Origin: Candidatus Omnitrophota bacterium
GTDB lineage: Bacteria; Omnitrophota; Gorgyraeia; Velamenicoccales; JABMQK01
Assembly (NCBI GenBank): GCA_028711115.1
Contig: JAQTSV010000001.1
Span: forward strand, 1,496,928 to 1,560,927
DNA length: 64,000 nucleotides
Reading direction: 5' to 3'
The notes below the pieces were generated by a model. The model was not told where the DNA came from. It was given only the letters and a program-made list of their open reading frames with translations, and did not search any database. Position numbers and translations under genes: made by a program. Below are positions 1-36,400 of the stretch, piece after piece; position 1 is the stretch's first letter; each line of letters starts with the position of its first letter.

Positions 1-455
1 GCAACAACTTTTCCTTTATGAATTTTGAATATTCCTTTCTGCCATTCTTCTAAAATGCCACGGGATATGCCGTTACCTTGGTCTTTTATGGAAATTATAA
101 ATTTTCCGCCAGATACGGTAACGCTAACGCGTATTTCAAATTGAGATTCAACCGACTCCATCCTTCCCTGTTTTATTTCTTCATTAAAATATGCGTATAC
201 GGCGTCAATCGAATTAGGAATAATGTGCTGTATCATATCTACAATGACAAAATCTAGGTAAAAATTATTCTTTTGTTCTATTATGCGCATGCAGTATTTA
301 TATAATAGTTCTATTATTTTGCTGTAAGCATAAATATAGGAAGTAACTCTTAATTTACCTTTTATCAAACGATCTATCATCTCGGTTTTGCTGATTGACG
401 GGATAAAATAATAAAATATGGAAAAATCCATAACGAGGTTTTCATCCAAGTCGTT
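1..455 (-). other. Module: GHKL (histidine-kinase/HSP90-type) ATPase-like; its C-terminal end runs off the window
   Basis: Peptide IIPNSIDAVYAYFNEEIKQGRMES...ISIKDQGNGISRGILEEW has an N-box-like NSIDA and a DxGxG motif. It is a clear paralogue of 1494-2111. Upstream junction is SASSPM at 456-473. Confidence 0.5.
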
Positions 456-12400: not shown

Positions 12401-15400
12401 TCCAGTTTTCTTTTAACTCTGTTCTCCAGAATAATACCTGCGAAGATATCTCTGAGGACATTCTATATTGTATTGATTTGATATAGCTCCTCTCCCACGA
12501 ATATCCATTATCATTGACTATTACTGTATAACCTTTTTTCGCCAAGCCTTCTATAATTCCGACCCAATCTATTTTATCAATATAATGCTTATTAATATTT
12601 CCTAAAGGATTGAGGAATACACATTTTTTATTTTCTGCACCATGATCAGACAACCAAGTGTGCGCTTCTATTGATGGTGTATCATCTAGGCTAGGCGTTA
12701 ATAAAACAACTTCTTCATTAGGTACTATAAATCCTTTTCTGCGCAACGCCTCTCTGGCTGCCTGGCGATATACATAGCCTTGCGATAATAAATGTTTTAT
12801 ATCTGACCTAAGATCTAAAATATTTTTACCTATTAGGCATCTTGCAGATAGATTTATTACTAAATCGTAACTATCGGAAGAAGGATCTATATCCTCTGCC
12901 TTTTCTTCTAGAAAAACAACTCTTTCATCAACGCGCAACTCTTGATAAGAATCGAGATTAACTGGCTTAATCCTGTTATTAACTGTTCGTACGTTTGAAA
13001 GGGGACAAAGAGCATGCACTGCTAATTTGCCTTCCTCTCTTGAAGCCAGGCGAGGAAAACTATCCAAGCAGGCCCTGATGGTCACGGGGACAAGGCATAG
13101 CGCCATGCCCCAGGAAGCATTTCCCATATGAATAAGAACTTTTCTGGTGTTAGAAAAATCTATCTCCACCGGTGATGATGCGGCGCTCATTGTCGTTATA
13201 ATTAATTTTTCGCGCCTTATTTTCTTCGATTTTCCTGAATGCGGCAAATCTTGCGGCCTGGCTATGGTAAACGTTTCGTTCTTTGACCTTACTAAAACAA
13301 ATTCCTCATAGCTTGCGGTTTTTAACCCGGAACCTTCCATCGCAAACAGCATTGGCCTTTCCTGGCTTTCTGTTATGTAAACAGCGCAGAGCGCTTTAGG
13401 ATTATCTTGCCTTAGAAATGCTGCCGCTTCTTTTATAAATCTGGTTAAAGTCCTGTAATCCGGATCATAAAATGCGTAATCCAATTGGGAAACACCGAAA
13501 TGTTCCTGCGGTTTATTAAACCATGGTGGTGCGAATATAATTTTATCGAATAAATTCCTGTTATCCCTCAACGGATCAAATAAATCTCCTTCCAAAAGGT
13601 TTGACGGAAACCCAAAGCGCCTGAAATTTATCCTGGCAAGCGTTAGCGCCTCGGAATTTATATCCGTGCTTACAACATCACCCGCGCCTAATTGATACGA
13701 CCTTATGCCTAAGATTCCGGTGCCTGTGCCCATATCCAAAACCCTGTCGCCGGGCTCGATTATATTTTCCAGCTTCCAGGCGAATAATTCTCCCATTTCA
13801 GCGCAGTAGTGGTGCGGATCCAAAGCGTGCGGGCCAACCTGAATTTTCCCTCCCAGAACAGGAATATATTTTTTCTGCCAAGAGTGGGAAACAATTAAAG
13901 GAGAGGAAGTTTTCAAAATTAGGCTCTCCCCTGTCATTTCTTTGGGCTGCTGTTCGTTTATAACGCCCATAATATTCAACATATGAATCATTGTGGGCGC
14001 GACATCGCTTAAACCGCCGCCTTGGCGTAAGGAAATCTTTCCTAAACGAGCTGCCGGATCAACGACAAAACACGGAACCGGCGCAGTGCTATGGGATGTA
14101 TCTTCTTTACTGACTTTTTCTGCGTTGCCGTGGTCAGCAATACCCAATATAACGCCGCCGATTTCTTTATTGGCGTCCTTTAATATTCCAAAACATTTAT
14201 CTACCGCGGCAATGGCCTTTATGGTAGCCGGAATACTTCCGGTATGACCTACCATATCGAGATTTGATATATTAAGGATAATAACATCATACTCTCCGGA
14301 GAGCATCCGCTCTTTAATCTGTTCGGTAAGTTCGTACACGGACATTTCGGGTTTCAAATCAAAGGTTGCCACATTAGGCAAATCAACACATATAGTATCT
14401 TCACCCGGGAATTGTATATTTCTTCCGCCGTCAAAGAAAAAGTGCACATGAGGATATTTGGTAGTATCAGAACCGCGCAACTGCTTAAGCCCTAATTTAG
14501 AAATAAATTCACCGAATGTATTGGTCAATATTTGTCCCACAAATGCCACCGATAAATTTTTAAAGGCATCGAACTTTTCATCATACACTGTCATCGTAAC
14601 CCATTTGACCTTTGGTCTTACCTTACGCTCAAAACCTATAAAATTATCATCCATAAATGCCTCTGTTAACTGTATACCTCGTTCATTGCGATGGTTGACA
14701 AAAATCACCACATCATCATCGTGAATTACACATTCTTCGCCGATGAGCGTAGTAGGTATGATAAATTCATCCGTATCTTTATTTGTTTCCTTATCGTAAA
14801 AATATTCCAATACCTCTACAGGATCGTCTGTTTGTGCTCTATTTCCTTTTGCCTGAGTGAGCAAGTCATACATTACCTGTGTCCTATCCTTCCAGAATTT
14901 ATCTCTATCCATAGTATAGTATCTACCGCTGAGTGTCGCAATTATACCAATTAATATTTGCCGTATCTTTTCCTTTAATAAACGCATCCTCTTTGCTCCA
15001 TCTGTAGGCGGCGAATCACGCCCGTCGGTAATAGCGTGAATCAACACTTTGTCTTTATCAATGCCTTCTTTCTTGGCTAATTCCAAAAGGGCATAGAGAT
15101 GCTCATCGGATCCATGCACGACTGCGCGGCTGACAAGGCTTATGAGATGAACTTTGCTGCCTTTTTCTTTTGCAAAACGCATTGCTTCTACTAATGCCGG
15201 ATTTTTAAAGAATGACCCATCTTCGATTGCCCTATTTATCAACACCAAATTTTGCAGCGGTTTTGTGCCTGTGCCGATTGTCTTATGCCCGTCATTAGAA
15301 TTACCCATCGCGCCCTTGGGAAGCCCGACTGCTTCGCCCGATGCCTGCAGTGTAGTAAAAGGCTGACCTTTCATTACGCTGTCGAGATTGGGTGTGAGGC

Positions 15401-18400
15401 CTTGCTTGCTCGCTAAGTAAATAGGATTATCTTCGGCTTCTGGCCCTATTCCCATACCGTCGAATATGGCTAAAAGAAGTGTCGGCTTTCTAGATTTTGT
15501 TACTGGTGAAGAAGCTACTCCGTTGGCATCGGCTCGCTCAATCTTTCCTTTTGCCACAATAAGCGAGCCTTCGCGCAAACCACTTTCAATAACACTATTA
15601 AAATATAATTCAATATCATCCTGGCCGGCTACTGCATCGACAGGTAACATCTCTAATCCCAGGCGCTTCAGTTCAGAATTCAAAACTTTCGATATTGCCT
15701 GATACATATTACGCATAAATATTTCTGCTACTTGCAATTTACCGTGATCAAGAAGAACCGTACAATAACGAAGAGGCGTGTAGCCTGTCCCTGATTTAAG
15801 AATTCTTTGTATCTGGCGGCCAACAGCATACTCAGATAGCTCTTTGTCGGTAAAATATTCATCGAGATTTTTAAGATAGGTTAGCATTTGTAAGACGCGC
15901 GTTGCTTTATGTATCACCTCACGATTAGTGATAGAACCTTTTTTGGTATTTTTATCGAGCCTTACGTGGGCAGTTAGACCTGTTTTTTCTACTTCTACTT
16001 CAGTTATAAGCTCTAAGAGTTTAATGACAAAATCTAATCGACCTTGATGCACAGAGACAACTCCTTTATCAGTTACTTCAGTAGCACCCTCAAATTCCGC
16101 GAAATCGACCTCGACCTTTCGGTCGGCGGGAGTTATGTCGACAAAAACTTTGGCTGTATGAACCCCTAAGTCAACAAAGAACCACGCTTTTGTCCCGGCA
16201 AATATAGTGTACATATTTGTGCCTCTAAGTTTAGGTTGAATAAGGGCCACTTTAGAAGCAATCTCTCTTCCCACTGAAAATTCGCGACTAATGGTATCTT
16301 CTAAATCGATAACACGCACGTGCTCTGCATATGGAATTTCCGTCTTATCTTCATCGACTATAATACTTAAAAGACGGCCGGATATATGCCCAAGTTCCTG
16401 GCGCATCTTCAACCAATCACCTCCTATGGCCTGACGGAACACCCCAAAAATACCTTCCAAGATTTCCCTGTGTATGGAATTAACGAAGTGATTTAATCTG
16501 TCGCGACTTACATCGGACTGAATTTTTTGTAATTCTTCAAATTCTTTTGCATACTTACTCTCAATGCCCGCCATCTTTTCATGCTGAGCAAGCATTTCTC
16601 TAATAATATCAAAGATATTATTATAATTTAATGTATCTGCTCCGATAAGCCGAAGCACTTGAGAATTTAATTCACAGAATGCAATAAAATTAGCCACCCA
16701 ACCTTTTATTTTTGCTAAAGTTTCAACGGATGAATCTTCGACTACAACAGGTTGATAGGCCGTAAGGCAGCGTGTTAGTCTCGTAGTGCATCTTAGACTT
16801 TGTAACTCTGAAGAAATATCGTCTATAAGATAAGCCGGAAGATGAACAGGAGAAATATCTTCGGGGTCAGTAATAATATCCGTATATCGTAAAGTAGAAA
16901 TTATATCATTTGGCTTAACTGAAACAGTTTTGCCTCCCACATACAAAAACGTACCTAATTTAGAAAGTTGGATTAATATACTAACTTCTTTTTTAATCCT
17001 CTCTGCCAATTCCTGGGCGCGGGCGATAGTTTCTGCATTGAGTTTTTTATTTGCGGCAATTTCAGCCTTGCATTTCTCGGTATTATCGCTAAGTGCCTGG
17101 AGGTATGCAAAATCCCCCTCATTGGCAGCGCCTTCTAATATATCTTTTGTGGCGTCGCTTAATATATCATTGATTGTTTCATAAGAATTGTATGTTGATT
17201 CGGCTAAGACTGCTTCAGTGTGGGTTAATCCTTCAATGTGTTCGAGGAGTTCATGAATAATAAGCTGGGCAATAATATGCGGATATTTTTTGCCTGCTCT
17301 ATCGTAGTAAGCCTGCGTAATATTTATATGCAAAATAAGTTCGTTATTTTCTATAGTATATGTTGTGATTACGGGTATCGGCCTTCCGGACGATTTTGTA
17401 ATAAATCCTTGCGGCGTACCATAAGGAATGAGATTAACGCGGAACTGTTTAATGCGGGGGTTTTCTATTTCTTGTTTATCGATAATGACGTTTCTTTTTA
17501 CATCTACTTCCTCTGCGGCAAACAACCTTAAGATATTTGCAGGCGGGCCCTGAGGAATAATAATAGAGCCGACTAAATAGCTGATGATTTCGCTGTTTAA
17601 GGCAACTTCGCGTCCTTGGGCGCGGATAATCTGATTGATGTCAGCTACCAGTATATCTATTTCTCCCCGGACAATATCTCTGCCAATGGGTTTCTTGGCA
17701 TCAATTCCATATTGCCTGTTTGGTGTAATCGGCGAAGAGGATTTCTTGGGAAAAGCAGAAACCACTGACGATTTTAATGTAGGATCAAACCCTCTCACAT
17801 CCATCATTCCTATTCTAACTAATTCATCATCAGAGTAAGCCCTGTTAGTTGTTGAATTTCTTAAGAAATCCTTTATGGTAAAAGATTTATCAAGTTTACC
17901 TCTTAACCCACAGCCATATATATTAGCAAGGTCATCGGTAAGCAGGACATAGCCGTATTTTAATAGATGTATAATTGCCTGCCACTGGCTACCTGTCTGT
18001 CCTGTTATAGTCTTAATAATATGGCCAGGATATCCTATTTCATTCTTACCTTGTTTTTCTTTATTAAAAAACTGTATGAATGTCGGATCAACCAGATAAT
18101 GCTGTTTTCCATCGCTTACTACGACAAATGCATGTTGTTCTCCCTTAAATATTTCTTTGGCCTGGTGTGTTCTAATCTTTATATTCATACCCGATAAGCA
18201 GGTAATGCTAATTAAAAACTCTAGGCTTCTGACAATGTATGACTGTGCCTCACCGCAATAATCCTCAAGACTTTCAGCAGAAAAGATAGAATGTTTTCCA
18301 AGATTAGCATTTAAAGAAGCATCTTGTTTTGCTAGAGAATCTCGAAAAGCCGTTCTAAAATCTGCTACTGCTTGTTTAATAATATCCTCAAGGCTAACTA

Positions 18401-21400
18401 CCTTTTCAACACGAATCTTAGAAGTTGTGACTAAGAATGGTATTGTGTAGCCTTTTCTTTTAACTAATTCCTCAGTGTAAATATTAGGAGAATTCCTTAT
18501 GGCGCTCGGCAACCGCATTAATATAGTATCCCAACTGGTTTCCTCTCTAAATTTTTCGACTATCCAGTCCATCCAGCGCTGGTTGGCTTCCACGCCAAAA
18601 CCACCGGATAGAGCGCCAAGGTCTTCTCTTTCGCCTACGGATAAGAGCGTTATACCTTTTATGTTACGCAGCATATTATCATTGCCGCCTTCAAAGAGTT
18701 CGTTTCCGCAGAAGAGTATTGATTCTGGATTAAGGTTGTAGGTTTTGATGAAGTGCCTGGCTGAGCGTTCCTTGTCATTGCCGATTAAGACGAACTTTAT
18801 GCCTCTGGCACCCGGGAATGGTATGTTTATGCCGGCCTTGCCAAGATCTGAGAGGCTGTTGTTTTCCAAGAGGCGTTTCTTGGCGTATTCGATAAGGGCT
18901 TTGCGTACTCTCTTTGCCTTGTCTGTCTTGTAGGGTTCTGCCGAGGTATCTCCTAACATCATCCAGCTGGTTGAGCCGCCTCTAAAGTAGGTCTCGGAGA
19001 TGTCTTCGAATCCTTCTTGAACTAAGATCTTCTTCATCTCACCAAGGATACCTTGTTCTATATTGATAGGATTAATGCCTTGAGGTAAGGAAGAGTTATG
19101 TCTTTCCAGGAATTCTGTGCCTTCTTGTATGCGTTTAGCGATACGCTCATCTTCTAAGTTGTCTGTCTTGTATATGGCTGCCAGGGACTTTGCGTATTCG
19201 ATGCTTCCGATGACTGCAATGGCCTGGGCATCACTGAACAAACAGGCAAATTCCTTATCATAAGTCCACTTGCCTTCCTGGAAGTCATAGTAGTAGCGGT
19301 GGCTGCCGTCTCCGCCATAGAACATGACGTGAGTTAGGACATCTTTGGGCAACCTGTAGAGTATGCGTTTACCGAGTTTTTCAATGGCAACACCGCTCAT
19401 GGGTATCCAGGCAAGGTTATAACCCTTTAATATACGGATAAATTTGGCTAAACCTTTAATCCATTCATCGGTCGGAGAATAACCTGATTCAAGTACAGTA
19501 TCATCTATGTCAGTAAGTATGGCGCCGGTAAAGGCTGGATGGGTTATGGGGGAGGAAGAAATTGTAATATTCTTCCCCCAGGCAAACTGAACTCTGTATG
19601 GATCTCTGGTTAAATCCGGAGCAAATTCTATCCATGCTAAATCTAAAATAGCCTTATTAAGAATAAAATCTGAAATTCCGCTTAAACGATAACCTAAACG
19701 CCACGGCGCAACAGCATACACAGAAAATGCGTGGCCCGGATTAAAATGCTGCCATAATCTTAGTTGGGTTACTGCCGGTGTAATTAAAATAGTTTTTATT
19801 CCTTGCTGGCGCGCGTAATCTTCCAAAACCAAAAGCAACATTCTAACCCAATCTTTATATCGCTCTCGTAGATTAGGACCTAATCTTCTAAAGATATCCG
19901 ATTGGATATTGGTCGCGACAATCATATCGCCAATAATGCGAAATTCGACATACCCGAATGCGCCAGGCTTATGCCCCGAATACAAATCTTTGTAATGATC
20001 TTTCTTGCGTATAATCTTCAAATCCTCGTCAAGCGGAGATAAAACCAGTGCCAGGCGTTCATCGCGAGAGCCGCGTTCTTCAGGCAAAACGCTAAAACAG
20101 CCGCCAAAGAAATTTACATCGCCTTGCTTTTGTGCGCTTATTGTTTCCTGATAAAAACGGCTCCTAAACCAATCCTCATTTTTCATAAATGCCTCGGCAA
20201 CAGAACCGACATATCCCGACGCAATATCCCACTGCGTGAGTAACTTACGAACAATATTTTGATTGGTTCTTTGAACTGCAAACGCTACATCTCTAATATA
20301 CTCACTGGGAATACCCCACTCAAATATCAATTTTTCAACCATTTCTTTACCAACTGCTTGCACAGCTAAAGCGACACGCACCAGGCGCGATTCAGGTATT
20401 TTATATTTACTTTGCAATTCTTGGATAACATCTGCCCCTGCGATCTTACTTGCTTGGGCGGTTTCGGACTCCGAAGAAGATTTTCCTCCAACAAGAGGCC
20501 CTTTTCTTTCTTCGGACGGATATAATGCACAGGCAGCTTCAGCAATGCTAATTTTATTACTAATAATATAATCAACTGCTTCATCATTAAGGCCGGCAAG
20601 AGCAATAATTAACTCGCTTTCTTGTTCGGTATAGCCCGCCTGTATCAATCTGGCGCGCAGTTTAACAATATGTTCTATCGGACTGGAGGATAATTCATCT
20701 GCTTTTCCCGGCATCATCTTTAATATGTCATTCCACTTGGTTCCCTGTTGCAATTGTTCAATTATCCAATCCATCCAGCGCTGGTTGGCTTCTACGCCAA
20801 AACCTCCGTGTATGGCGCCCGGGTCTTCTCTTTCACCAACGGATAAGAGCGTAACGCCAGGAATATTTCTTAACATATTGTCATTTCCGCCTTCAAAGAG
20901 TTCGTTGCCGGCAAACAGCACTGACTCAGGTTTAATACCAAAATGTTTAAGCAGGTGGCGCGCAGAGCGTTCTTTATCATTTCCGATTAAGACGAATTTA
21001 ATTCCTCTGGCGCCAAAGAACGGTAGGCTAATACCTACTTTACCTAAATCTGAGAGGTCATTATGTTCTTTCAGGCGTTTGCCGGCATAATCAAAGAGTT
21101 CTTTTCTGGTATCTACTGCGTGAGGCTTCTGGTATGGTTCTGCAGCAATATCACCAAGCATCATCCAGCTCACTGAACCGCCTCTGAAATAAGTCTTGGC
21201 ATCTTCAGGTTTAAAACCGCGCAACTTTAAAATTTCCTTCATCTCACCTAATATGCCAATTTCAGGATTAATAAGTTTAATACCTTCAGCCAATCCAGCA
21301 TTATGTTTTTCGATAATAGTAAGGGCTTCTTGTATAGCTTCGGTGACACGAGAGTCATTTACATCTTCTATTTTTAATATCTTGGCAAGTGCCTTGGCAT

Positions 21401-24400
21401 ATGCCTTTACGCCGATAACAGCAATGCCCTGTGCATGGCTGAAAATACTGGCAAATGATGGATCAGAAACCCACTGCTTGGTCTTAAAGTCATAGTAGTA
21501 GCGGTGGCTGCCGTCTCCGCCGTAGAACATTACATGAGTTAAAACATCTTCAGCTAATTCGGCTAACCTATATAAAATACGTGGGCCAAGTTTCTCAATG
21601 GCAACACCGCTGACCGGTATCCAGGCGATTTTGTGTTTCTTTAAAATGCGGATAAATTTGGCCAATCCTTCAATCCATTCATCGCTGGGCGTGACTCCTG
21701 ATTCAACTGCTGTATCATCGATGTCGGTAAGCCAGACGCCATCCAACTTTACCACACCAAGCTCTCTTATTCTTCTCTTAAAATCAGCCTGTACACTATC
21801 CCTGACAGGGTCTTCCACGGGGAGGCCGCGGTCTGCGTAAGGGTCATTGATGCGCGCCAGGGCAGTATTAATGGATTCTTCCAGGCTACGTATATTATCA
21901 ATAACTAAAGTTTCAGTGAGACCTGCCATCTCAACCAACCGGTCGTGACTCTGCCTTATGGTTACAAATTTAGCCTGGTAACGGCCTGCTCCGCCTCGGG
22001 CTTCTCTTCCGGCATAGCGTAAGAAATGTTCCTCCTCATTACTGATGCTGGAGATAATCCAGACGATGTTCGCCTTTTCAAAATACTCCTCAGGCAACAG
22101 CCCTGGGATAAGCGGCACACCTTCGATAACTGCGGATGTTCCTTCCTTGATAAGCCTGTCTAAGGCAGCCATGACATTAACCATGGTCATAATGGAATGT
22201 TCATAGTACCACTCCAATTCAGGCTTATTAAAAGAAGAACCGAATACTTCAGGGAAGGCTTTTTTGGCGCGGTCTTTGCCCAAAAGCCAAATTGACGTCT
22301 TTCTAAAACCTTCTCTGGCACCCACGTCAGTGGAGAAACATGTTGGAATAGATAATCTCTTGGCAATGTGAGAAGCTATTTTAGACTTGCCTGCGCCAGA
22401 AGCTCCAGCAACAAGTATAATGGTGGGACGGGTAAGGCTTTTTACTTTTTTAACAGGATAAAGTTTCAAAAATAGCAAGCGCACGAAATAATAAAACTCG
22501 TCCTGTGAAATCTGGCTGAGCACTTTACCGGGTATATCAGGATATTCATAGAAAGATTTTTTAGCCCATTCTTCTGTACTCCACCATTTCTCCAGAAAAC
22601 CGTAGTAATCCTTTATCAATTTATCAACGCTATCCTCCCATGTTGATAAAGTCCGGCGCACATCTTGCACTTCATAAGACTTAAGCACATCTTCAGGCGG
22701 AAGCTTAACAATGAGACGTTCTAATGAGGCCTTTAAATCATCCAGAGTTTTATCATCGGCAAAAGCCTTCTCAACCAATGTAGATGCTATGCCATAGCGC
22801 TTCACTAAAACATCGCACAATTTCTCACGTGCCTCAGAAAAGAGAGTGCGTTTTAAATCTTGCCTTAATATTTCTAAATCGCGGACCTTAGCCCTATCCA
22901 TAGTCCTGATAGCTTTATACGCCTGACGACGTGCCGTATCATAATTAGAGCCCCTAAGGACAGCGAGCCTTCCCAAGAGCTCACAGTGCATACGCCTTAT
23001 CTGGCTAAGATACAAACTTATTTTCCCCAAGGTATTACTGTTATCCTGTAAAATCGCATGAATAACATCGCTGGGTATATCTCTGGCGGCAGCAATAAAT
23101 CTTTGCACTTGTTCTTGCAGAAATTGTTCTCTCTGGGTTTTGTCGGTTAATTCCTCGGGTGGTTCTATGCGTAACAATGCAGCGAGGCTTTTTGTATCTT
23201 TTGCAAGGAACCTATTAATTTCTTCCTGAACCCGTTCTACGCCTGGATGTTTACCATTGGTAACTGGGCTGCTGGAACCATTTTTGCCTTCTTCTTCATC
23301 CTGAATATAAATCACCAATTCTTCCCGTCTGCGGTCCAAATCAGCATTTACACTATCCCTGACAGGGTCTTTCACAGGGAGGCCGCGGTCTGCAAAAGCA
23401 TCGCTAACGCGCTCCAAGGCAGTGTTAATGGATTCTTCCTTGCTACGTATATTATCAATAACTAAAGTTTCAGTGAGGCCTGCCATTTCAACCAACCGGT
23501 CGTGACTCTGCCTTATGGTTACAAATTTAGCCTGGTAACGGCCTGCTCCGCCGCGGGCTTCCCTTCCGGCATAGCGCTCATAGTGTTTATCCGGATCGCT
23601 GACGCTGGAGACAATCCAGACGATGTTTGCCTTTTCAAAATACTCCTCAGGCAACAGCCCTGGGATAAGCGGCACACCTTCGATAACTGCAGAGGTTCCT
23701 TCTTGGATAAGCCTATCGATAGCGGCCATGACATTAATCATGGTCAGAATGGAGTGGCCGTAGTACCATTCCATGTCTGGCCTGTCGAATGAAGAACCGA
23801 ATACTTCAGGGAAGGTTTTTTTGGCGTGGTCTTCGCCGAGAAATAAAGAGAAAACCTTGCGGACTGCTTCGCGGGCACCAGCATCAGTAGAAAAACGGGT
23901 AGAGATGGATAACCTGCTTGAAACAAGTACCGATATGGTACTTTTGCCTGTGCCTGAAGCACCAGCAATTAAAACTACAGTGGGACGACTAAGATCCTTA
24001 AGGCGCGGGACATGATGAAAGCGCGGGAACAACCACTTAATAAGATCATGTAATTCTTCTATTGTAACTTGCTGGCGTATTTCTTCAGAAACAGAAGAAT
24101 CATTATAGAGCAATTCCATTTCATCTTTTCTGAAATCATCCCAAGCAGTAAGCAAAGAGGCATATCTTTCTATCAATTCATTAATTCCATCCTCCCAGCC
24201 ACGGATGATAACATCGCACCTAAGCTGCTCTATTTTTCTTTCTCCTTTCTTTACCGCTTTATTGATAATTCTTTGGGTAGCTTCTTTAAGTTTTACCAGC
24301 GTATCGGCATCTTTAAGCTGGCTTACTACAAATAGCTCGGAAACATTGCAATCCTCAACAAAGAATTTGCTGAGTACCGCTTTTAATTCCGGCAATAAAA

Positions 24401-27400
24401 TATTTTCGATATCCCTCAGCTCAGCTATGGTTCTCTCTACATCAACGGCCAATCCATTCTTTTCTTCTTTTTCGTCTTCTCCGTATTCTTCTTTATCTTT
24501 TTCCTCATGTTTTCCTTTTTTCTTTTCTAATACTTCTTTGGCAATCTTGCGCGCTTCATCATAATTATATTCTCTGAGCATTGCCAGACGCCTTACAATT
24601 TCATACTGAATAGCTCTAATCTTGATAAGGCTGTTTCTGGTATTTCGCAAATCGCCAATATGATTATTGAATAATTCCGCTATACATGTATCTGGTATAA
24701 GGCTGGCGATAGCGGCTTTTCTTTCTGACAATGCAGCAAAGCGGGCCTTTTCTTCCCTAATTCTACTTAGCGGCGGCGCCAAAATTCCGGCACCAGCCAT
24801 TGTCTTGACATCCAATACGCCTTCTGTAAGAACAAGCGGCCTGACCTGCACAACATACAACACGCCGTTTCTCTTGACTGCCTCCAGTTCGACAGGTATG
24901 CCGTATAAACGGTGGTAGCCGCGTGCCACTTTTGCCATATGCACCTGTTCTTTGTCTGTCAACACTGGCTTGTTTTGTTCTCTGCCGGCAACAGGAACTC
25001 TCGTTACGCCAAAACCATTTTCAGTATTGAATACAAATCTTTCTCTCTTTTGCGGTGCGGATCGAGTATAAGCTGTCTCTGTCATCAAATTAACTACATA
25101 TAAATCGCTGTCAACTTCTCCGGAGACTAATCCTATTCCGGCGCCGTATGCCGCGCTGATAACTGCTTCTTTCCAGTTTAATTCCATCGCGTTGATGGAC
25201 GAAACAACCATACTGGCATCAGCCTCGACCTGATGATGGATAAGAACTGGCTGCGTAGCGTCAACTCTGCCCATCTCAACCCAATAATAAGCTGAACACT
25301 TAAGGATGTGTCCTAATAGCAATTTACTTCCACGTATATAGGGATACGATATAAAACGGCCTGCCATGGCAGCTTCTGGTCTGTCTTCATATAGCGAAGA
25401 AGACCTAACCACCACAAATACGCCGCCTTCCCTTAAATAAGCATCGTGCAGCGCCTTCTTAAGATCCTTTTTAACATTCAGCGCCTGAATGATTTCTCCT
25501 AATGTGGCTGGCTGAGCTTCGCCTTTTTTATGTTTATCTATGATGGCACTAATGACTAAATCGCGTTCCTTGCCTGGCTCGAATGCAATATCAATAAGCC
25601 TTCTGATTTCTTCTATCTTATCCTCTAACGGAATAAGGCGTTCTAATTCATGGTATTTTACGGCAATTTCTTCTTCTGAGGGGTTAACCATTCTTAAGCA
25701 CAACTGCGTAATCCTAACAAGCTTTGCATTATGCGGAATGCTCTCTCTAAGAATTTTCTGTATCTCTTCCACAATCTTGGCATTCGTATCAAGAAGCTGC
25801 TGAATACCTAATCGCGTCATCACAAAACCATCAGGTATCTCTACGCCAAACTGAGTGGTATTGCGGATTTCCCCTATCTCAGCAGCTTTATTGCCAAGCA
25901 AGCCCGCCAAATAACTGCCTGCCTGCGCCAGACCTAATACGTTTCGGGATTCCGAAAGTTCAATCCGTGCGATTTCTTCTCTGATACAGGAGTCAACCCG
26001 CTCAGCCAACTGCCTTACTCCTTGGCCGCGATAAGTAATATAGGTATGTAAAGACTCCGACTGGCGGATAGCCCGTACTGCCCATCCAAAATCGCGCGGC
26101 TTAAGCTCGCCCCTGTCTAATTTTTGCTCAATGATTTTTAAATCTTCTATGGACTGCTCACGGAATATTTCTATCCTGTCTCTATAAAGATTTTGCACTG
26201 TTTCAATCTCGTCTGTGAAATCTCTGGGCGTAAACCCTAAGCGCTCTTTTAATAATCTGACCATTTTGTTAAAATCCCTTAAGTTGTTGCCTAACTGATA
26301 ATAAGTAAACACAACCTCGGTAAGATATTCTGTTTTGGGAATGCGCATTTGTGCTAATCTTATCCACTCCTGGACGCGTTGTTCATAGATACTTAGGGCC
26401 TGTACAATGTAATCCTTAATTTGCTCTGCAAGTTGCGGCACTGGATGGGAAATAAGCCGTTCGATAATGGCAGCTTTATACTCATCATTGGTCAGTATAT
26501 TCTCTATTAAAATCTGCTGAACAATAAACTTCATCAGTTCTATATTTCTTGTGGTAATGATAGCCAAAAGCAGTTGCTTCAAAAAGAAATTATGCTTTGT
26601 CTGTTCAAGGCGCACTAAGGCATTGTATATAGTTTGAACTCTGACCCTGAAATCCTGGGCGACATCAAAAGAGGCGCCAACCGCAGTCACTGACTTCTGG
26701 TAGGTGTTAATAGTAATTATGTCTCCTTCGTAAATAAACACTTTTACCTCGGCACCCGTATCATCCGTAGTAACAATCTCAAGGGCATATTCTTCGCCAA
26801 CTTTTACCCATTGTGCCGAAGGAACAATGACGCTGGGCCTGCCAGCTGACTTCAGGGTTAATTGTGCGTGGTCTAATGGCGCTCCACCGCGGGTTAATGA
26901 ACCTTTTGCCTCCATGGCCTTGCGCACATCGCCAGGAACTAATGTATCATCAAAGAATATAGCATCTCTAAAATCCTTAGGAAGTTTTTGACTGCTATTT
27001 CGCATAAGCCGACCAGTAGCAATTCCCCTAGATGATATAGTAACCTCGTGTATGGCTACACCTTTAGGCATTGACAGGCTGGCAAACGGTGAAACAAATT
27101 CTTTCCCAACCACAAAAGACGTATCGGATAAATAGCCGAATCCTTTCAATTTATTTTCTAAACGCGCGGCGTCATCGATAACATTTGACTTTCCGAAAGG
27201 CATTTCTAAATGCATGCCTTCCACAACAAAAGCAAATTCAATATCCCCCGATTCATAATCTCTTAAAACGTAAAATGTTGTTGTGATTGGTAAAGTTTCT
27301 AAAGAAACTGTCTCCAGGCGGCCTTCCGGTAATTCTCTTATAATCTTAAACTGATTTATGGATGGATCAATGCGGCGGGCGATTGCAGCACAAGATATAA

Positions 27401-30400
27401 GATGCTGTGTCATTGCTGCAGTGCCTAATAACTTTCTAAAATATTTAACCAGTTCATCTAACGACACCTGGCTTATCGGGCTGGAGGATTGCAAATTGCC
27501 TTTTAAAGCTTTAGGCCCTGTTACAGCAATAAAACCGCCATCTATATAGGTATCTTCCGGTATAGCCAAATCCTTGAATATTTCCAGGCCTTTCTTTTCG
27601 CTAAATTCCCATTTCGGCCTAAAGCCCAATGCGCAGCTAGCCAATAAAATATTGGCAATGGCTGCTCCTGTATCCAAGTAAACAAATAAATTCTCGCCGC
27701 GTTCCTTGGTTGTGGTGGAGTGTTGCGAAAGATCACCAACTCTCCCTGCTCTTTTTACGTTTCCGATTACATAAACACCAAAAGGAATCATCTTGGCATC
27801 CAAATCAAGAACACTGCATACACTTTTTGTCCTTTTTTCAGTAAGGATAAATTCCGAAGTCTGAAGATTTTTGGCAGTGGGCGCCCATCGCGCAGCTTCC
27901 AAAAGAAATAAAATATTCTTTTCAGATTCACGAGGATTGGAGTTGGCAAAAGCAGCGCAATGATTCATGAACAGACTGGAAACAAGCGCGTATCCGTCGC
28001 CCGTGTCAAAAGTATCAATACCATCCTGAAGGACCTTTCCAGTATGGCCATTCTTATACTCAAGCTGATTAACTTTTCTGGCTTCGGTTTCTACTGCGGA
28101 TAAATCAATTACGGTATTTTCCTGCCAGGTTTCATGATGCGTTCTTTCCGCAATGTCTCTTCTCTTGGCTACGCGCATAGGCTCAGCAGGATAACCTAAC
28201 GGTATAATCGCTATCGGAGTTAAATCCGGGTTCGTTTTTAAAATTCCTCTGACTCTCTCTTCATCAAAACTACTAATCCAGAGAGAACTCAGGCCGAACG
28301 ATGTGGCCATAAGCAAAATATTCTCTATGTAAAGCCCTGCAGAAAGCAAGGTTCTTTGCTTATCCCTGGCCAATGCTCGTTTCTCGGCAAGGAATACCAA
28401 AGAAACCGGCGCCTGCGCTGGTTGCGGCTGTTTACCTTTCTTTATATCTTTGCCTAATTTTTCCCTGCTTCGTTTATTTTCAACAATAGCTATCTCAAAA
28501 TCGCTAGGATAAATAAAATATGCTGACCATTGCCGCGCATATTCCAATATCCTTTTAACTACTTCCTCATCTACTCCTTTATCAGGATCAAATTTTCTCA
28601 CGCTTCTTCGCGAGAGAATAACCTTGCCGATTCTATCTTTCAGCTGAGCCGGCGTAAATACATCTCCCGTTGTCTGCGTAAATGCCGGCATAGCCCAGCG
28701 GAATATACTCGACAGTACTTCTGATTCTTCTTCCAGTGCGCGCTTGAGAGATTTTCTATCCATGCCAAGTATGCAATCAACCCAGACGCCGAAATTACTT
28801 AGTGTTTTTAATGTAACTTCGGGAGTAACCCTAATAACATCAAAAAGTGAAATTCCTGAATCTATTATTCTTCCAATTTGATTAAATACAAAATCGCGAT
28901 GGCTCTGTTTTATTTTCTTATCGTAGAAAATGTCATGGCAGAAATATCCGAAATAAGCTATATGGAAGCGGTAGTCTATGCCGCGCTTTGCATACGCCAG
29001 TGACCACTCCAATGACTTTAATAATACTTCCGGCCCCATATCCGAAAGTACATACCTATATATATTAAAATGAAGGAATGTATTGGAATCTCCAGTGCGC
29101 GATGTAACAATTTTCATATTCTTTCTTTGCAAAGTAAGTGCTATCTCCTGAACTAAATCCAATGCCCTAAAGAACTCTTCAAGAGTAAACCAACGGATAT
29201 GTTTATGATATGGCTTTCTGATTGGCAGAAAATCATAGAGCAGAAGATAGGGGTCAAATCCTGCGCGGCTTAATAAAGTTGCGTTTTCGGCTATTCTGTT
29301 CCAAACCAGCGGCTGTTCGCTTTCGCTAAACTGACTTACCATTTCTTCGTAACCTTCTTCTGTATAATTACCGAACCGATCTCCGAGAAGTTTGCGTATC
29401 TGCTCTTTTCCATAAACGATATAATCCAGCGATACAAATCCATCAAAATGCGCGTGCTTAAGGAAGTGTTGTTTTATTTCGTCTCTTCCCATTGGTTTGT
29501 AGTTATTGTTGTAACCGGTACGCCTTCTTTCCTCTTCGGTCAATAAATTCAGGCATTCGTCATGGCTATAAAGCGACATTACGACTGGCGCCCTGGCAAA
29601 AATATCCATAAAATGTTCATCGCGCAGGAAGGGCGCGGTTCCTAATAAAAGCGAATTATGTCGGCCCATTAAGCGCGCGGCAATAAAACGTCCGTAGAGC
29701 GTATAAGCAAAAACCATGATGCGTGGATCATTATATTTAAACAAAGGCGTCTCTTCCACGCGGAAATAATCACTGATCATCTTAATGCTATAACTCAGGC
29801 GAGCTTCAGCAAACACTGTCATAAACACATTGGTATAAGCGCTGCCTGTTGAAGGATAATTCAACAATTCCTGCGCAGCGGCAACCGCGCTGAGTTCATA
29901 TTTGGCAAATTCTTTTAATTGGCCTTCTGCGTCGCGGAAACCGGCTAATTCAAGTATTGACAAAAATCTCCTAAACTCATCGGCATAAATATGCAGGAAT
30001 TCTTTTGTATTGGCATTGTAAGCAAAGAAACCGGGGACTTTTTTCATAAGTTGTAAAAATTCTTTGCTTTCTTTAGTATGCCCGCTTTTTTTCAATTCTC
30101 CTGCCACGTGATTAATTAATCCCTGGTTAATGCGGCTAATATGAGAAACTTTCCAGTGATAGCGGCTTACTTCGTCATAGTGTATTAAATCTTTGGCCAG
30201 CCCTCCCATTTTAATCTCTCTGGAAGAATCATTTATCGGCGAGCTGGAGATCCACTCTTTTATCCGCAAATCAATTGGTTGCTGCAATACTCTAATGGCT
30301 TGGGCATTATCATCAAAAGCTATTACATTCTTTCTGGTCTGTCCACACTCCTGGCATCTATAAACAATCATCCAGCGTTTCTTATCACTATTATATTCGA

Positions 30401-33400
30401 CGCCAATCGGCTCCAATAATCCTTTGCATTCTGACGCGCGGTCTCCCGGCTTTAAATCATCAAGGTGCTTTGACCATAAACAAATCGTGCAATGATCCCT
30501 ATGGAGCCCTCTTTTGAAGGAAGGAACTTCTCTGCCGCAATGCTCACAAATAAATGCCGTATTATTCTTTATCGGCGAGCTTGCGGCTAAATCTTTCACC
30601 ACGCGCGTGCAGAGGCCGCCTTGGTCTATCTTTGATAAATTCTCAGGATTAGTGATTACGACTTCTTCAGCCGCTCCCAAATCAACCAATTCAATAGCCG
30701 CTTCTATTTTAGGCAGCATTGAGCCGGCGGCGAATTGATTTTGTTCGATATATTGTTTTAATTGGGCAGTTGTTACTACGAGGATTGGATCTTTGGTTGT
30801 CTTAAAATTAATGTAGGCGCAGGGGACTTCTGTGGAGATAATCAAACGCCTTACAGGCGGCCCGCGCTCAGCTAATTCTCTTACCAGGCGCGCGGTAGCC
30901 AAATCTTTATCAATGACTGCGGCAAGCCAGCTATTTACATTATTTATATCAACAGGGATTCCGCCGCCTCCGACGCAGATTACAATTTTTTCTTCCGACA
31001 ACAACTTGCATATTGAATCAATTGCGACAGTGCGTAAAGGTTTGGGGCTGGCAACTCTAGGCCTTTCTATCTTCTTTCCGGCTATATCAAACCTCTGCAA
31101 ACCAATTGGCTTTGTGGGATTGGTAAAACCTTTATCTTGGCTATCCACAGCTACGCGGGTAATTACTATACGTATTTTTTGCCTATCGATTCCTAAATTA
31201 ACCAGCGCCTCCAAAATATCGCGGCCAATCCAGATTTGCGTCTTCATTACAACATCGGCCAAATTGTTATTAATAAATTCCTGGTCTTTTGCCAAATCAA
31301 TCGGCCTTTCCAGCATTTTCTCAAGCAGCGCTCCTGCTTCTGGGCCGTTACCGTGAGTTACTATGCCACCGTTTCTTAATCCCCCGGCCATCTGTTTCAC
31401 TGTTTCCAAAACTCTTTCTCTTTGCAGGCGTTTAATTTCAACCCAATGGCTATCCAACCAAGGATATAGTTTACTTACGTCTTCCGCCAATAACAGCGAA
31501 TTCCCGCCCACAGTGTAAATTGTATCTACCTGCTTTAGCGGGCTGGAGTTTCTTGTCCCGCTATAACGTAATGTCTGTTCAACTATCTGATTAATATCGT
31601 CTGAATCCGCCATTACTAGATGAGTTATGTTGCCTTTTCTTATTATCCGATTAGCGGCTATCAATGAATTTATTTCCATTGCGTCTGAATAAGGATAAAG
31701 ATCTAATAAGTCCGATTCTTTTTTTGTTATTGGCTTACCTTTTGCAATACGATAAAGAAGGTCGTGATGTACGGGGCTGGTCTTTTCTTTAATATGACGC
31801 ATAATAGAATCATTCGTTGCTTCCCACAAGCCAAACTCCTGTAAGGCTTCTTTATATGGCATAACCACAATTAATCCTTCTTTTTCCAAAGGATAGAACT
31901 GCTGAAGCGTTGCATCAATAAATAAAACCTCCTGGCTATCCAAAATGAGCACTATCCAACAATGTTTAGTAATCCTTTCTATTCCGTGTTCATCAGGTTC
32001 CAAATACTTGAATCCTAATACCACTTCTAATCTATCTGGCTTATTCTTGCTTATTGGCAAACCAAATTTCTCCGAAATTATCCTGGCAAGGGCAAATGAC
32101 GAATGCATGCAAACAAAGGGATACTCTAACTGAGGCGAGTTAAATGTTGTCCTTAAGGTCCAATGATATCGGGAAGCTATGGAAGCAAGAAATTCCTCTA
32201 TTTGTTCAGAATAACCGTATTCGTGGACTTTGAGCGGTGAGGAGGATGAAGTTTTAATCCTTTTGCACACATCATCATGCAATTTCGCAAACTCTGCTAC
32301 ATAATGAGATAATGAATATTCCGTGCTTTGAATAATACGCATGGCTTCTTCACAGAGCGCTTTTAACCCGAATAATACTTCAACACTGGAATTTCCAGGT
32401 ACCGCATCTAATCTCTCCTTTATATTTGTAAACAAAGAAACAAGTGTATCGAATTCCTCGATTTTACCGATTTGTATGTCATGGCATATATCCAAAAGCA
32501 TATATGCAAATAAATCTATGCATAACAAGACGTTCAATTGATCTTTATCAAATTGAGCTGTCTTTTGGTATACAACATTTCCACACTTCAAGAATGGTAA
32601 CCCGGCCAAGCCTGCTTTCTCTAGAATAATCTTGGGTTCTTGTTCAGCAGAAAAAGCACAGAAAAACTCCAAACCTAATATTGAAGGCCTGAAAAACACA
32701 GTTGGATGTTTGACATATCTAATTAGGAATAAATCTCCTAAACTGGCTTCAGCGATAAATTTCTTATAAAAAGCCGGTAAACAAAGTTGTTGGAGATGAA
32801 GATGGCCTACAGGACAATCCAGGATATAAAGAGTTGGCTGATTAAATAACGTAGCGTTATTCACGTCGTAATAATTTTCGGTTATGGCTTCAAATTCTAA
32901 TTGCCTGCCTTTGGAACTAAAGAATATTCTGCCGTCTACAAGCGTAAAATCAGAACCCACAGCCTTGCCGAGATTATCTTGTAAAGCAGAAAGCGCACCA
33001 GAATCCACATCGTTAACAACAACCTTTTTAAGATTTGGCAATCTATCCAACAGCCTAACCAATGCTTGCGCGTCATCGCCAGACCCAGGATAATAAAGAA
33101 TCTCTATGCTGTTTAACATAACACCTGTATTTATTTTCTTATTTGCATAATCAATGACTTCTGAAACCGGTGGAACAGAGGAAGGCATTCCTGTTTCCAC
33201 AGGCAATATGCCAGAGGATTCTTCCGTAACAATCTGGGTTGGTAAGGGTCCTGTGATTTCTCTAGAAGAAGAAATTCCTAATGCCTCGTCTATTGAGGGT
33301 TGGTCTAAGGAAAATATCCCTACAGCTTTAACAGTTATTGGGCTTGAAGTAGAGTGTTCGGAGAAGAATTTTGATAAGTTATTATCCATTTCGCTTTTCT

Positions 33401-36400
33401 CCACCGGTGAGCTGGAGCGCGGCTGAGGATTGAGTTCCATCTTCATAAATATCAACGCGCCGCCTAAACCTGCGATTCTTTCATCGTTAACAACAGGCTC
33501 TTCTTTTGACCAGCGATAACCTTTTGTATAAATTACGAATTTATCAACACCTTCCATGGCTCTTAGGATTCCCATTCCATATCCCTGCCAACGCGTACCC
33601 GGTATAGTCGGCCTTACGACAAATCTGCCATTTTCTGCGATGCGCAAGACAGGTACGCCACTATTATCAGCATAAAAACCATCGCCTCTGTCCATAGCTG
33701 CCAGATATATCCAGCCATTTTCCCTGTCTATTCTGACGAATAATATGCCATCGTCACCGGCATACTTCCTAATATTCTCTGTTAAGCACATAATCTTAAA
33801 CATTATGTTTTCTAGTTTTGTTGCATCTTTATAAAACCAGAGACGGAATAAGGCGTGTCTTACCACCTCATCCAATTCGTGCTTTTTACCTCTTAAAACA
33901 ATATCCCCTTCTTGTCCTTCTGTTTTTATGGATTCGAGATTGCCATTAAATAATCTCCAGAGCTCCATTGCGTCGGAAATGAATCGGCCTTCATCTATGG
34001 GCGAAGAGGATTGTTCAACCCTAAACCTTTGAACCAATTTCTTAGTCCATTCAATGGCCTGTTCCTGAGGAGCAAAAAGCGGAGCAGTGGCAATTACAAA
34101 TGCTCCGAATGATACGCCAAGGCCGGCCAAAAATTCTGTGAGGCTGTCTGCTTTCTTATCAAATTCTGAATCCCTGCGCTCACTGCCTCTGGTGGCATAA
34201 TCCCATTCCAGGCTTCCGATGAGCTGGCTTCTTTCGAATCCGCGGGATTCCAAGAATGCCTTTAATTGACTTTCCGCTATTGTTATAACTGAAAATTCTC
34301 CTACTATTCTCATTGTGGGCTTAAGCGCCTCTTCTAAATAATTAACAGCTATGGATTGGTATTTATGCCACCTTGAATTATGTATTATCTTATAACGAGA
34401 ACCTGATGATTCTCCTGCATTAAACTCTTCAGGATTTTCATAATCATCCGGCTTAACATCGATAATCAATGTGATAAAACCTGTCAGTAGAGAAGGTGTA
34501 ATAAACCGCGATATGCCCAACAAAGCATTGTTATCTAGTTTCACAACCAATCTTACAATTTGATCCAAGTCCATTTGTGGAGAAATTATTTTGTCATCAT
34601 CTAGCCAATTCATATCTTGGTGATGATCAAAGCGCACCAAGACATTGCCCTTAGACCTTAGATTTCCTAAAAGCATGGAAAGATTTACGCACAAAAGCTC
34701 TTCATAGTGGTGATCAATTAAATATGTATTCCCTAATCGGCCGACTTGCGGAATGAATACGCTTGCCACTAATCCTTTTGCAAAAGCGGCTGCCATAGGA
34801 CAGGTAAGCCCGCCGCTCTCAAGGCCAAAGAACTTAAGCGAATCAGAGAGTTTTAAGTTTCCTTCGGTTCCTAAAATTAACCGTGGATAATTGCCTGCGA
34901 AATGCCATTTCTCATCTGCGCCGAGCCTGAAAAGCTGTTCAATTCCCAGCGGCGAAGAGGAATTTTCAGAAACACCGCGCGTATAAATTGAATAAGGTAT
35001 CAATACCGGATATGTGCCTATTTCGATTTCTTCATATGAAAGTTCTGAATCATCAGAGATTATTTCATATTCGGCGAATACAATAAACCTTGCGCCTGGT
35101 TTTAAGCCTGTCGGACTTATCATTTTTTCTCTTAAAACTCTGTTGAATTCCCTGTTTGTTCCGTAAATAGAGGGGACTGTATGATAGAAATACAAAACAT
35201 CGAATCTGCGAAGGTCTGCCTTTAAGAAATCGCAATGAACAAATTTGATATTGGCTACGCCTGGAATCTTACTTGTCAGCTGGGCTTGATTTTCTAAAGC
35301 AGCTTGGTGCAGAGAATTCTTCCATTCCATAGAAACAACACGGTCAAAATATCTTGCCGCCAAGAAAGCCCACTTGCCATTTCCGCCGCCAAGATCCGCT
35401 ACATTTGCATCAGGATTAAGGGTTCTTATATAATGCAAAATATACAATGCCCATAATGTGGGGGTCAGCTTGAATATACCGTATTTCTTATCGCCGTGAT
35501 TATCCACACACAACCATCTTGCCTGCTTTTCACATAACCGCTCTATAGTCCAAACCAAATAATGTGCGCTTTCACTACGCGCTTGCTTCACTATGGTGTC
35601 GTTATTTTCAACAACAGGCGAAGAAGAAATCTTTCCGAAATTGAATATACCATAGCCCCAGCCAGGGAGCTGAACCAGCAATTTCGGAGATTTGTCTTTC
35701 TCCGCAATGCCATATTTAACATTGGAAGAATGAAGCGCATCCAAAAGTTTTCCGGAAATTTGCCTTGGTGCTTTAGAGTCGTCTTTATAATAATCGAAAA
35801 CCGTATCTAACCCAACCATTACGATTTCTTCGCGCGGAGAATAATTTACAAAAACCAAAGAATCCCTATCGGCCGTATGCCTTACAAAAGAAACTATTCC
35901 GTCTCCTGATTCATGCCTCGCCCAAAGATCACCTCTCATAACAATTTGTAAAACAGATCCTTCAAATCCATACGGATTGTCTTTCGGTATAATACTCTGA
36001 ACATCTTCAAACCTTGTGCTATAGAGTTCTCCTTGCCTGAATACCGGCTGGGACAATAAAGGCAACAATTGTTCAAGCTCCGGTATAAATCTCTCATCTC
36101 CGGTTAATACATCCGGATATTTGAATGCATAAATGCCGGAATCAGGAGATTTGTCTTCCATTATCGCGCCTTCCGGAGTGCCCATACCCAACAACTGCCT
36201 CAAAGTCAAAAGCGGATAGCCTTCTATGGCAAACGAAATGACCGTTGCCGCCAATGCACGCTGTTTATTTCCAAATGCCTCGATAAACGGCTGCTCATCG
36301 TGATTTTCAGTAAAGTGGACGCACCTTGCCACAAATGCCCTTGGCGCATTTATAAACAAATACCCTCTTAAATCTCCGACATTTCCGCCTCGCAGAATAT

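Follow-up and report, generated by a model that had tools for sequence, protein, structure and literature searches.

Recurrent SSP-type peptides delimit protein-sized blocks in a giant Omnitrophota reading frame and may be processing sites

How does a bacterial gene come to encode dozens of protein-sized units in a single chain, and what do the boundaries between these units record? The question is raised by a 64,000-nucleotide (nt) stretch of the Candidatus Omnitrophota contig JAQTSV010000001.1 (positions 1,496,928 to 1,560,927; the whole stretch is called the window here). One of its minus-strand frames, frame -2, is free of stop codons over the entire window (21,332 codons) and overruns both ends, whereas the remaining five frames contain 706-1,707 stops. 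Because this giant open reading frame (ORF) leaves the window at both ends, the ORF tool lists just four short ORFs. Throughout the frame a short peptide of the type SSSPI recurs as a junction between modules (m), and a preliminary description had proposed that these junctions mark former protein boundaries rather than domain boundaries. We consider it more probable than any other reading, at roughly 60%, that the gene is made of fused gene blocks and that the peptide between them is a selected punctuation, most likely a processing site.

The tetrapeptide SSSP is seen 43 times against 0.26 expected, and the next residue is isoleucine, leucine or valine in 39 of these 43 cases. Together with 22 further xSSP[ILVMF] sites, mostly ASSP, this gives a total of 65 junctions, which divide the frame into 66 intervals (64 of them complete). 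For the strict form SSP[ILV], 60 occurrences were observed and 0.93 expected (Poisson P ~1e-85). In an unbiased scan of 4-mers, five of the six most over-represented words belong to the junction: SSSP, SSPV and SSPI hold ranks 1-3, and SSPL and ASSP hold ranks 5 and 6. The sole unrelated word among the six, WQKL, occurs 4 times. Information content is limited to positions -3 to +2, the flanks being without signal, and the consensus reads [S/A]-S-S-P-[I/L/V]-[T/E/S]. The interval lengths are bimodal: 17 are shorter than 60 amino acids (aa), 46 have at least 150 aa and a single one has a length in the range from 60 to 150 aa, whereas random placement of the junctions would be expected to yield about 13 intervals of 60-150 aa. 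The median among intervals of at least 60 aa is 302 aa. In other words, about 47 protein-sized blocks of 107-1,462 aa (median ~300) are concatenated in frame with 17 short spacers, which are hydrophilic and of low complexity, and tandem junction sites 1-22 aa apart also occur. The coordinates given in the preliminary description proved codon-exact on the minus strand (23277-27473 is 1,399 codons, 20691-23261 is 857 codons), and the inter-junction lengths that it had counted by hand and likened to those of bacterial proteins are right to within 2 codons (on recount 107, 193, 217, 233, 318, 334, 451, 531, 579, 711 and 1399), but the series left out the 17 intervals below 60 aa. A short conserved element that includes junctions is found three times on the minus strand (45117-45320, m20 and m21; 1299-1478, m62 and m63; 50892-51044, partly m13), with the pattern ...ISQDSTYRGRFWNLFAK.QVLLGT...SSPLE......EGPG...SSSPL.

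Only two proteins matched in a homology search with a query of 4,912 aa. One of them, P0011, is a 3,482-aa ORF that fills the 10,445-nt contig L001 of another metagenome-assembled genome (MAG) of Ca. Omnitrophota, GCA_028717585.1, and is 72% identical to the query over 3,467 aligned residues. All 5 junctions common to the window and P0011 are kept, with synonymous changes, and module m43 (601 aa) is missing from P0011 exactly from junction to junction. Cassettes are also duplicated within the window itself. Exactly from the junction codons TCCTCCTCGCCC onwards, the DNA of m8 and m10 matches at 100% over about 750 nt and at about 80-90% thereafter; the upstream flanks are unrelated, and the similarity stops at the next junction. 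The pattern suggests that the cassette was either duplicated or gene-converted very recently. The same region has a locally high GC content (0.445-0.459) and a GC skew near zero. Further full-length paralog pairs are m14/m23, m54/m56 and m20/m62, the last being 76% identical, and the HAD copies around m42 (17742-23261, minus strand) suggest a lineage-specific insertion or duplication. Scans of genome contigs with m40 and with the m44 alignment found no relative. The ortholog also bears on whether the frame might be an artefact of mis-assembly, of a chimeric contig or of reading separate genes with an incorrect genetic code. Perfect 750-nt repeats can indeed mislead assemblers, but an independent MAG contig shows the same architecture and junctions, a frame without any stop over 64 kb contrasts with the numerous stops of the others, and there is no fixed codon at the junctions that could be a reassigned stop; such an artefact is hardly credible.

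Is it the peptide or the underlying DNA that is conserved? The junction codons vary synonymously and even switch between TCN and AGY, which takes at least two substitutions each time, and this variation indicates that the constraint acts on the peptide. We infer that the motif has been selected at the amino-acid level and that the junctions are unlikely to be passive relics. Four sequences that each unite several such blocks in one chain show significant enrichment of the motif; it occurs 6 times against 0.12 expected in the protein fragment P0014, and 3 times against 0.09 in the ORF of contig L002. It is absent from at least 20 free-standing homologues, including those with the same inter-domain linker. 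Nor is it shared by all fused multi-enzyme giants, since P0012, a 6,277-aa protein of an Elusimicrobia MAG, has one SSP[ILV] where 0.32 is expected and is thus unpunctuated. The content of P0012 includes AceK, cofactor-independent phosphoglycerate mutase (iPGM), a 2-hydroxyacid dehydrogenase and many transmembrane helices.

The codons of the junctions are nonetheless strongly biased. Ser(-1) is written TCG, the rarest serine codon, at 40 of the 65 junctions against a background of 11%; CCG is used at 40 of 65 against 31% and TCC at 29 of 65 against 16%, and Leu(+1) is CTN in 16 of 19 junctions. Recombination micro-homology, recent common origin or translational pausing could be the cause of this bias. 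Such a preference might be expected if the junction were a DNA-level feature, namely a micro-homology or recombination scar (TCC-TCC/AGC-TCG-CCG) that serves in-frame cassette shuffling and yields the peptide as a by-product, and the start of the m8/m10 identity exactly at junction codons and the junction-to-junction indel of m43 point in the same direction. However, the preferred TCC-TCG-CCG is shared with the close ortholog L001 and not with the distant L011 and L002, which hold the peptide without the codon bias; the codons of the ortholog differ synonymously, TCN/AGY switches included; and 12 nt of homology is short for homologous recombination. We therefore regard a mainly DNA-level feature as very improbable. 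Two more specific candidates were rejected: a universal nucleotide signal at the junctions, in view of the distant relatives that keep the peptide and not the codons, and a 2A-like ribosome-skipping site (an upstream peptide of ~18 aa with D(V/I)ExNPG|P), in view of the lack of information upstream of -3 and of a core that is SSP and not NPGP.

The preliminary description had suggested that each module be compared with its free-standing homologues, and for seven modules (m4, m37, m38, m40, m43, m44 and m45) the ends lie within at most 14 aa of native homologue termini. Residues 8-528 of the 531 of m45 correspond to positions 3-504 of the 504 of TIGR01307, and residues 4-92 of the 107 of m38 to positions 2-89 of the 90 of the RNHCP model. 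Module m37 (318 aa) aligns nearly end to end with carbamate kinase chains of 310-317 aa, residues 35-245 of m4 align to 36-253 of Escherichia coli YdcF (PDB 3ca8, 266 aa), and residues 5-348 of m43 align to 9-345 of HAD-kinase proteins of 813-833 aa, with matching N-termini. Positions 8-713 of m44, whose family numbers only 21 relatives in an exhaustive phmmer search of 1.84 billion representatives, align to 1-694 of P0013, the product of a free-standing gene (727 aa). The whole of m40 is homologous to residues 1-1389 of P0017 (a complete gene of 2,682 aa); the N-terminus of m40 corresponds to Met1 of that protein, and the C-terminus of P0017 aligns to the end of m44; the C-terminus of m41 likewise corresponds to that of P0001. 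On L012, a metagenome contig with a GC content of 33%, the m44-like gene P0013 is distinct from the m40-like gene that precedes it, the two ORFs having 29 nt in common (3204-3232). This arrangement is an operon-like neighbourhood of two blocks of the giant ORF. The m40-like gene stops 32 aa past the sequence RGLPV, and the window junction lies 37 aa past it, i.e. the two are at most 5 aa apart.

All this could also be accounted for by ordinary domain boundaries that arose through domain accretion and internal duplication, the termini agreeing simply since a single-domain enzyme is one domain from end to end. Such an explanation draws on P0001, which crosses the focal junction between m40 and m41, on P0017, which unites m40-, HAD- and m44-like parts, and on L002 and P0014, which are punctuated after PPDK_N. 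We consider it distinctly unlikely, because m40, m41, m26, m55 and iPGM, which has two Pfam domains, are unpunctuated between the domains that they contain, because the m40-like gene on L012 is a separate gene with its stop at most 5 aa from the m40 junction, and because just one interval falls within the typical single-domain range of 60-150 aa. The four multi-domain modules named in the preliminary description indeed lack even a relaxed form of the motif inside. Its statement that single-domain enzymes are individually bracketed does not hold universally, a nitroreductase being buried within 27489-30233.

A number of observations weigh against our own reading, first of all at the focal junction. 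The partial protein P0001 (Thermoplasmatota MAG, 1,209 aa) gives a single high-scoring segment pair (HSP) that spans 23262-23276 (query 1041-2256, subject 1-1202, 37.5% identity) and has no SSP motif at the junction position. P0009 and P0017 pass from the kinase straight into HAD, and P0017 holds m40-, HAD- and m44-like blocks in one 2,682-aa chain; the position of the focal junction can thus be an ordinary inter-domain linker, as in P0001 and P0017. L002 and P0014 have a junction directly after PPDK_N, where m40 has none, so that placement varies between relatives. P0011 is also without the HAD domain of m41, and one breakpoint falls inside m41. The 915-aa module m39 (27489-30233) encloses the nitroreductase of ~170 aa (residues 537-705), which is a whole protein elsewhere, and m17 (47625-48437) has sigma-70 region 4 as its sole domain and is not obviously a whole protein. 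About 8 of the 47 modules were compared with free-standing relatives. The module at 39822-41435 has no homologue at E <=1e-5 in a word-indexed search of 5.8 billion proteins, and many other modules of the giant ORF appear to be orphans without a detectable homologue. Finally, a protease domain was looked for and not found, whether in the 64-kb slice, in L011 or in the complete L002 protein (3,015 aa).

The arrangement of the blocks differs in other relatives as well. In P0015, P0016 and P0018 (1,534-1,595 aa; one from Desulfomonilia), the m44-like block precedes the PPDK_N block, and the P0014 fragment contains 6 strict junctions and one SSPA variant. The L002 gene (2942-11989) is complete and lies amid housekeeping genes (hisG-like, TPR, ispE); its 3,015-aa product has an N-terminal signal peptide, is apparently secreted, and carries three SSP[IV] junctions between 2-phosphoglycerate kinase (2PGK)-like, PPDK_N-like and HAD blocks. 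The cases of P0001, P0017 and L002/P0014 make the choice between protein and domain boundaries a false dichotomy. The idea that junctions mark protein ends is thus supported in part, by the seven modules whose termini coincide, and is not supported as worded at the focal junction, where the P0001 alignment runs across, an outcome that the preliminary description had named as speaking against it. The junctions are better described as edges of autonomous blocks, which appear as genes in some lineages and as fused domains in others.

The region from m39 to m45 shows how such blocks are composed (Table 1). The two 2PGK-like copies in m40 and m41 score ~109 bits against a cutoff of 343 bits for NF003259, covering model positions 57-293 and 84-291 of 306; by these scores, the two P-loops are best taken as relatives of the 2-phosphoglycerate kinase family and not as equivalogs. 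Residues 888-1386 of m40 and 22-501 of m41, i.e. the helical region plus the kinase, are 47% identical. On either side of m42 lie two HADs, that of m41 and the one with which m43 begins, and they share 66% identity; m41 as a whole is a circular permutation of the free-standing proteins P0002-P0008 (813-833 aa). Most domain labels of the preliminary description hold, namely ATP-grasp and P-loop in m40, P-loop and HAD in m41, and HATPase_c and a cytidylate-kinase-like domain at 39822-41435. The swivel of m40, in contrast, is a sequence motif only, with no Pfam support, and the acyltransferase and kinase labels of 5940-7727 correspond to weak FabD-like and uridine-kinase-like matches only (E ~1e-4). 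In an AlphaFold2 model built from a 12-sequence alignment, the focal junction (query 275-279) falls inside a coil (269-282) with a predicted local distance difference test (pLDDT) score of ~37. This is the only low-confidence coil; on one side of it is the last helix of the first kinase and on the other the helix with which the next block begins, and both flanks score 80-88. The HAD part of the m40/m41 model is poorly predicted. The focal junction is thus predicted to sit in an exposed loop.

Table 1. Window coordinates of the giant ORF, its modules, domains and junctions
Feature	Coordinates	Strand	Evidence or remark
Uninterrupted ORF, Omnitrophota-type multi-enzyme giant gene	3..63998	-	zero stops; 72%-identical ortholog fragment P0011/L001
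m1, 1,462 aa, polytopic membrane module, ~14 hydrophobic helices	56835..61220	-	Kyte-Doolittle scan (crude)
m4, complete YdcF/DUF218-like protein, 247 aa	55986..56726	-	PDB 3ca8
m8-m9-m10 cassette duplication; m8/m10 proteins 91% identical over full length	52185..55625	-	boundaries at junction codons
m37, complete carbamate-kinase-like protein, 318 aa	30582..31535	-	PDB carbamate kinases 310-317 aa; TIGR00746 positions 24-309/309
Junction SSSPI, m39/m40	27474..27488	-	aligned to Met1 of free-standing P0017 and to junction SSSSPV in P0014
m40, 1,399 aa: N-terminal domain, putative swivel, PPDK_N ATP-grasp, helical region, 2PGK-like P-loop kinase	23277..27473	-	
PPDK_N (phosphoenolpyruvate (PEP)-synthase-type nucleotide-binding) of m40, residues 525-882	24828..25901	-	PF01326, E = 7.6e-35
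2PGK-like P-loop copy 1 in m40, residues 1129-1361	23391..24089	-	NF003259, 109 bits, under equivalog cutoff
Focal junction SSSPV, m40/m41	23262..23276	-	SSSPI in ortholog P0011, different codons
m41, 857 aa: helical region, 2PGK-like kinase copy 2, HAD phosphatase-like domain	20691..23261	-	
2PGK-like P-loop copy 2, m41 residues 271-474	21840..22451	-	NF003259, 108.9 bits
HAD-like domain of m41, residues 508-851	20709..21740	-	homology: 47% identity to N-terminal HAD of P0002
Junction SSSPI, m41/m42	20676..20690	-	TSSPI in P0011; coincides with P0001 C-terminus
m43, 601 aa, HAD and C-terminal domain of no identified family	17742..19544	-	cassette missing from ortholog
m44, 738 aa, no Pfam family	15513..17726	-	matches free-standing 727-aa P0013; also C-terminal block of P0017
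m45, complete cofactor-independent phosphoglycerate mutase	13908..15500	-	TIGR01307, 508.2 bits, cutoff 330.65

How might such a gene have arisen, and what might the peptide do? The giant gene may have grown by taking in whole genes or gene blocks, some of them from operon-like neighbours, as indicated by the PPDK_N-like, 2PGK-like, HAD and m44-like units being adjacent genes or fusions elsewhere. At each step, the junction peptide would have come to stand in for the stop codon of one gene, the first few codons of the next and the intergenic region between them, and the same domain boundary can carry or lack the motif depending on the lineage. The motif would then be the recognition and cleavage site of a dedicated endopeptidase, and the product a polyprotein processed into single enzymes. 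A cut after the aliphatic residue would leave N-termini a few residues from the native ones, e.g. TKSRKP... for iPGM. The strictness and shortness of the motif, the exposed coils, the native termini and the tandem spacers together give the appearance of polyprotein processing sites. A sequence of two small residues, proline and an aliphatic residue also resembles the P4-P1 preference of subtilisin- and elastase-type serine proteases (AAPL, AAPV, AAPF). That cleavage takes place at the motif specifically has, judging from the sequence, slightly less than an even chance. As for the protease, the C-terminal ~250 aa of m43 (17742-18500, minus strand) contain a C...HAFVVV...YLVDPT pattern, which we take to recall transglutaminase-like Cys-His-Asp proteases; Pfam is blank here, so that the domain is a candidate only, and its single-sequence AlphaFold2 model is unusable (pLDDT 34.6).

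The predicted short exposed coil at the focal junction and the lack of a protease in the window, L002 and L011 would also suit a non-cleaved hinge or a modification site (Ser phosphorylation or O-glycosylation) between the folding units of a giant membrane-anchored multi-enzyme scaffold. The 14-helix module m1 and the published reading of such giants as a 'membrane-anchored cytoplasmic domain' fit tethering, and modification would be in keeping with the many kinase-like and HATPase_c modules of the giant. Yet simple linkers have no need for an invariant S-S-P plus aliphatic core, P0001 and P0017 have the same domain junction without the motif, and tandem sites 1-22 aa apart are hard to account for in this way, which is why we hold a hinge or modification site to be unlikely, if worth keeping in mind. 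Returning to the polyprotein reading, it may be extended to an 'operon in one reading frame'. In this extension, which is less likely than not, dozens of once independent genes would be translated into a single cellular polyprotein, a dedicated protease, possibly of the subtilisin type, would cut it at [S/A]SSP[I/L/V], release would occur perhaps after export or delivery to prey or host and would give a stoichiometric enzyme cocktail, and the DNA of the motif would double as in-frame micro-homology for cassette swaps.

The cargo of the frame is diverse. Domain annotation of ~50 modules with Pfam (E <=0.01) and NCBIfam identified complete iPGM, carbamate-kinase-like, RNHCP and YdcF/DUF218 proteins, several methyltransferases and GNAT, as well as radical SAM, HATPase_c, alpha-glucan-phosphorylase-like, nitroreductase, helix-turn-helix (HTH) and sigma region 4 families, the HATPase_c and cytidylate-kinase-like domains at 39822-41435 sharing one module. 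Many modules match no known family in these two collections; relaxed-E Pfam searches with ten no-hit modules gave nothing usable and no peptidase, and PDB searches with the radical-SAM module and with m43 were uninformative. The membrane block m1 is embedded amid soluble modules, and its helices constrain the topology of any uncleaved product. GC content is ~41% in the window, and plus-strand GC skew is negative throughout. An Rfam scan and a tandem-repeat scan of the window were both empty, which counts against ribozyme or repeat explanations. Plus-strand frame 0, with 706 stops, is far below the other non-coding frames and has antisense open stretches of up to 263 codons, e.g. 47398-48189; these are probably a codon-complement effect and not evidence of genes.

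The literature on huge proteins asks whether they work as a single chain or are cleaved; with its 65 occurrences, the motif provides the first concrete prediction as to where cuts might be made. Given the recurrence of the motif, the native termini, the conservation of the peptide and the predicted exposed loop, the question of cleavage is directly testable. The motif also offers a principled way of splitting giant proteins for structure prediction and annotation, and the comparisons with relatives provide evidence for a gene-fusion origin of giant ORFs, with the reservation that the fused units are evolutionary blocks and not strictly 'genes'.

The gene class itself, that of the 'Archaeovorin' or multi-enzyme giants of Omnitrophota, is already known. 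Giant ORFs of more than 20 kb have been found in many Omnitrophota (Seymour et al.). Archaeovorins are giant Omnitrophota proteins of at least 30,000 aa, in some of which S8 and C39 peptidase domains have been reported; their cleavage is suspected, the cleavage points being stated as unknown (West-Roberts et al., bioRxiv 10.1101/2023.11.21.568195). 'Multi-enzyme metabolic cluster' giants are also on record for the phylum (bioRxiv 10.64898/2026.06.07.730766), and a review of huge proteins puts stop-codon loss and fusion first among the hypotheses and likewise regards cleavage motifs as unknown. Neither the punctuation motif nor its coincidence with native termini was found in the literature searched, including term searches of the two Omnitrophota giant-protein preprints (10.1101/2023.11.21.568195; 10.64898/2026.06.07.730766). 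The window gene shares with these giants its Omnitrophota origin (shown via the ortholog P0011), very large size and transmembrane-helix clusters, and a repertoire of HATPase_c, methyltransferases, radical SAM, PPDK_N, GNAT, HAD, GT5/phosphorylase-like and TPR domains. Its ORF has at least 21,332 codons, with both ends beyond the window, against the at least 30,000 aa of Archaeovorins, and of the divergent SecA DEAD-like, C39 and S8 domains of Archaeovorins none was detected in this 64-kb slice (Pfam E <=0.01), although they could lie beyond the window. Among the free-standing relatives, P0002-P0010, P0013 and P0015-P0018 share the m40-m44 domain blocks at 27-49% identity (BLASTP HSP); on L012 the blocks are neighbouring genes of their own, and elsewhere they are fused in several different orders. 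These relatives differ from the window in lacking SSP[ILV], in their size of 727-2,682 aa and in belonging to other phyla (Desulfomonilia, a Chromatiales-labelled MAG and a Thermoplasmatota MAG).

Two marks of a polyprotein are seen in the window, namely complete proteins within one ORF (m4, m37, m38, m44 and m45) and a conserved boundary motif at 65 sites. The viral polyproteins of picornaviruses and flaviviruses and pp1ab of nidoviruses are similar in having one ORF, complete proteins, a short boundary motif and occasional spacer peptides. In contrast to them, the window gene is cellular and chromosomal, is 5-20 times longer and carries metabolic and regulatory enzymes, and both its protease and its cleavage are proposals. 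Among bacterial proteins, MARTX toxins (3,500-5,300 aa) are likewise large and made of independent modules, which are freed by cleavage in short linkers; they have their own cysteine protease domain, which cuts after Leu, and glycine-rich repeats, and none of these three features was seen in the window. Finally, the nuclear polyproteins of Euglena and dinoflagellates (light-harvesting complex (LHC) proteins and the RuBisCO small subunit) consist of tandem proteins joined by a conserved linker peptide that a processing protease removes, but they are eukaryotic, repeat the same or a similar protein and are tied to plastid import.

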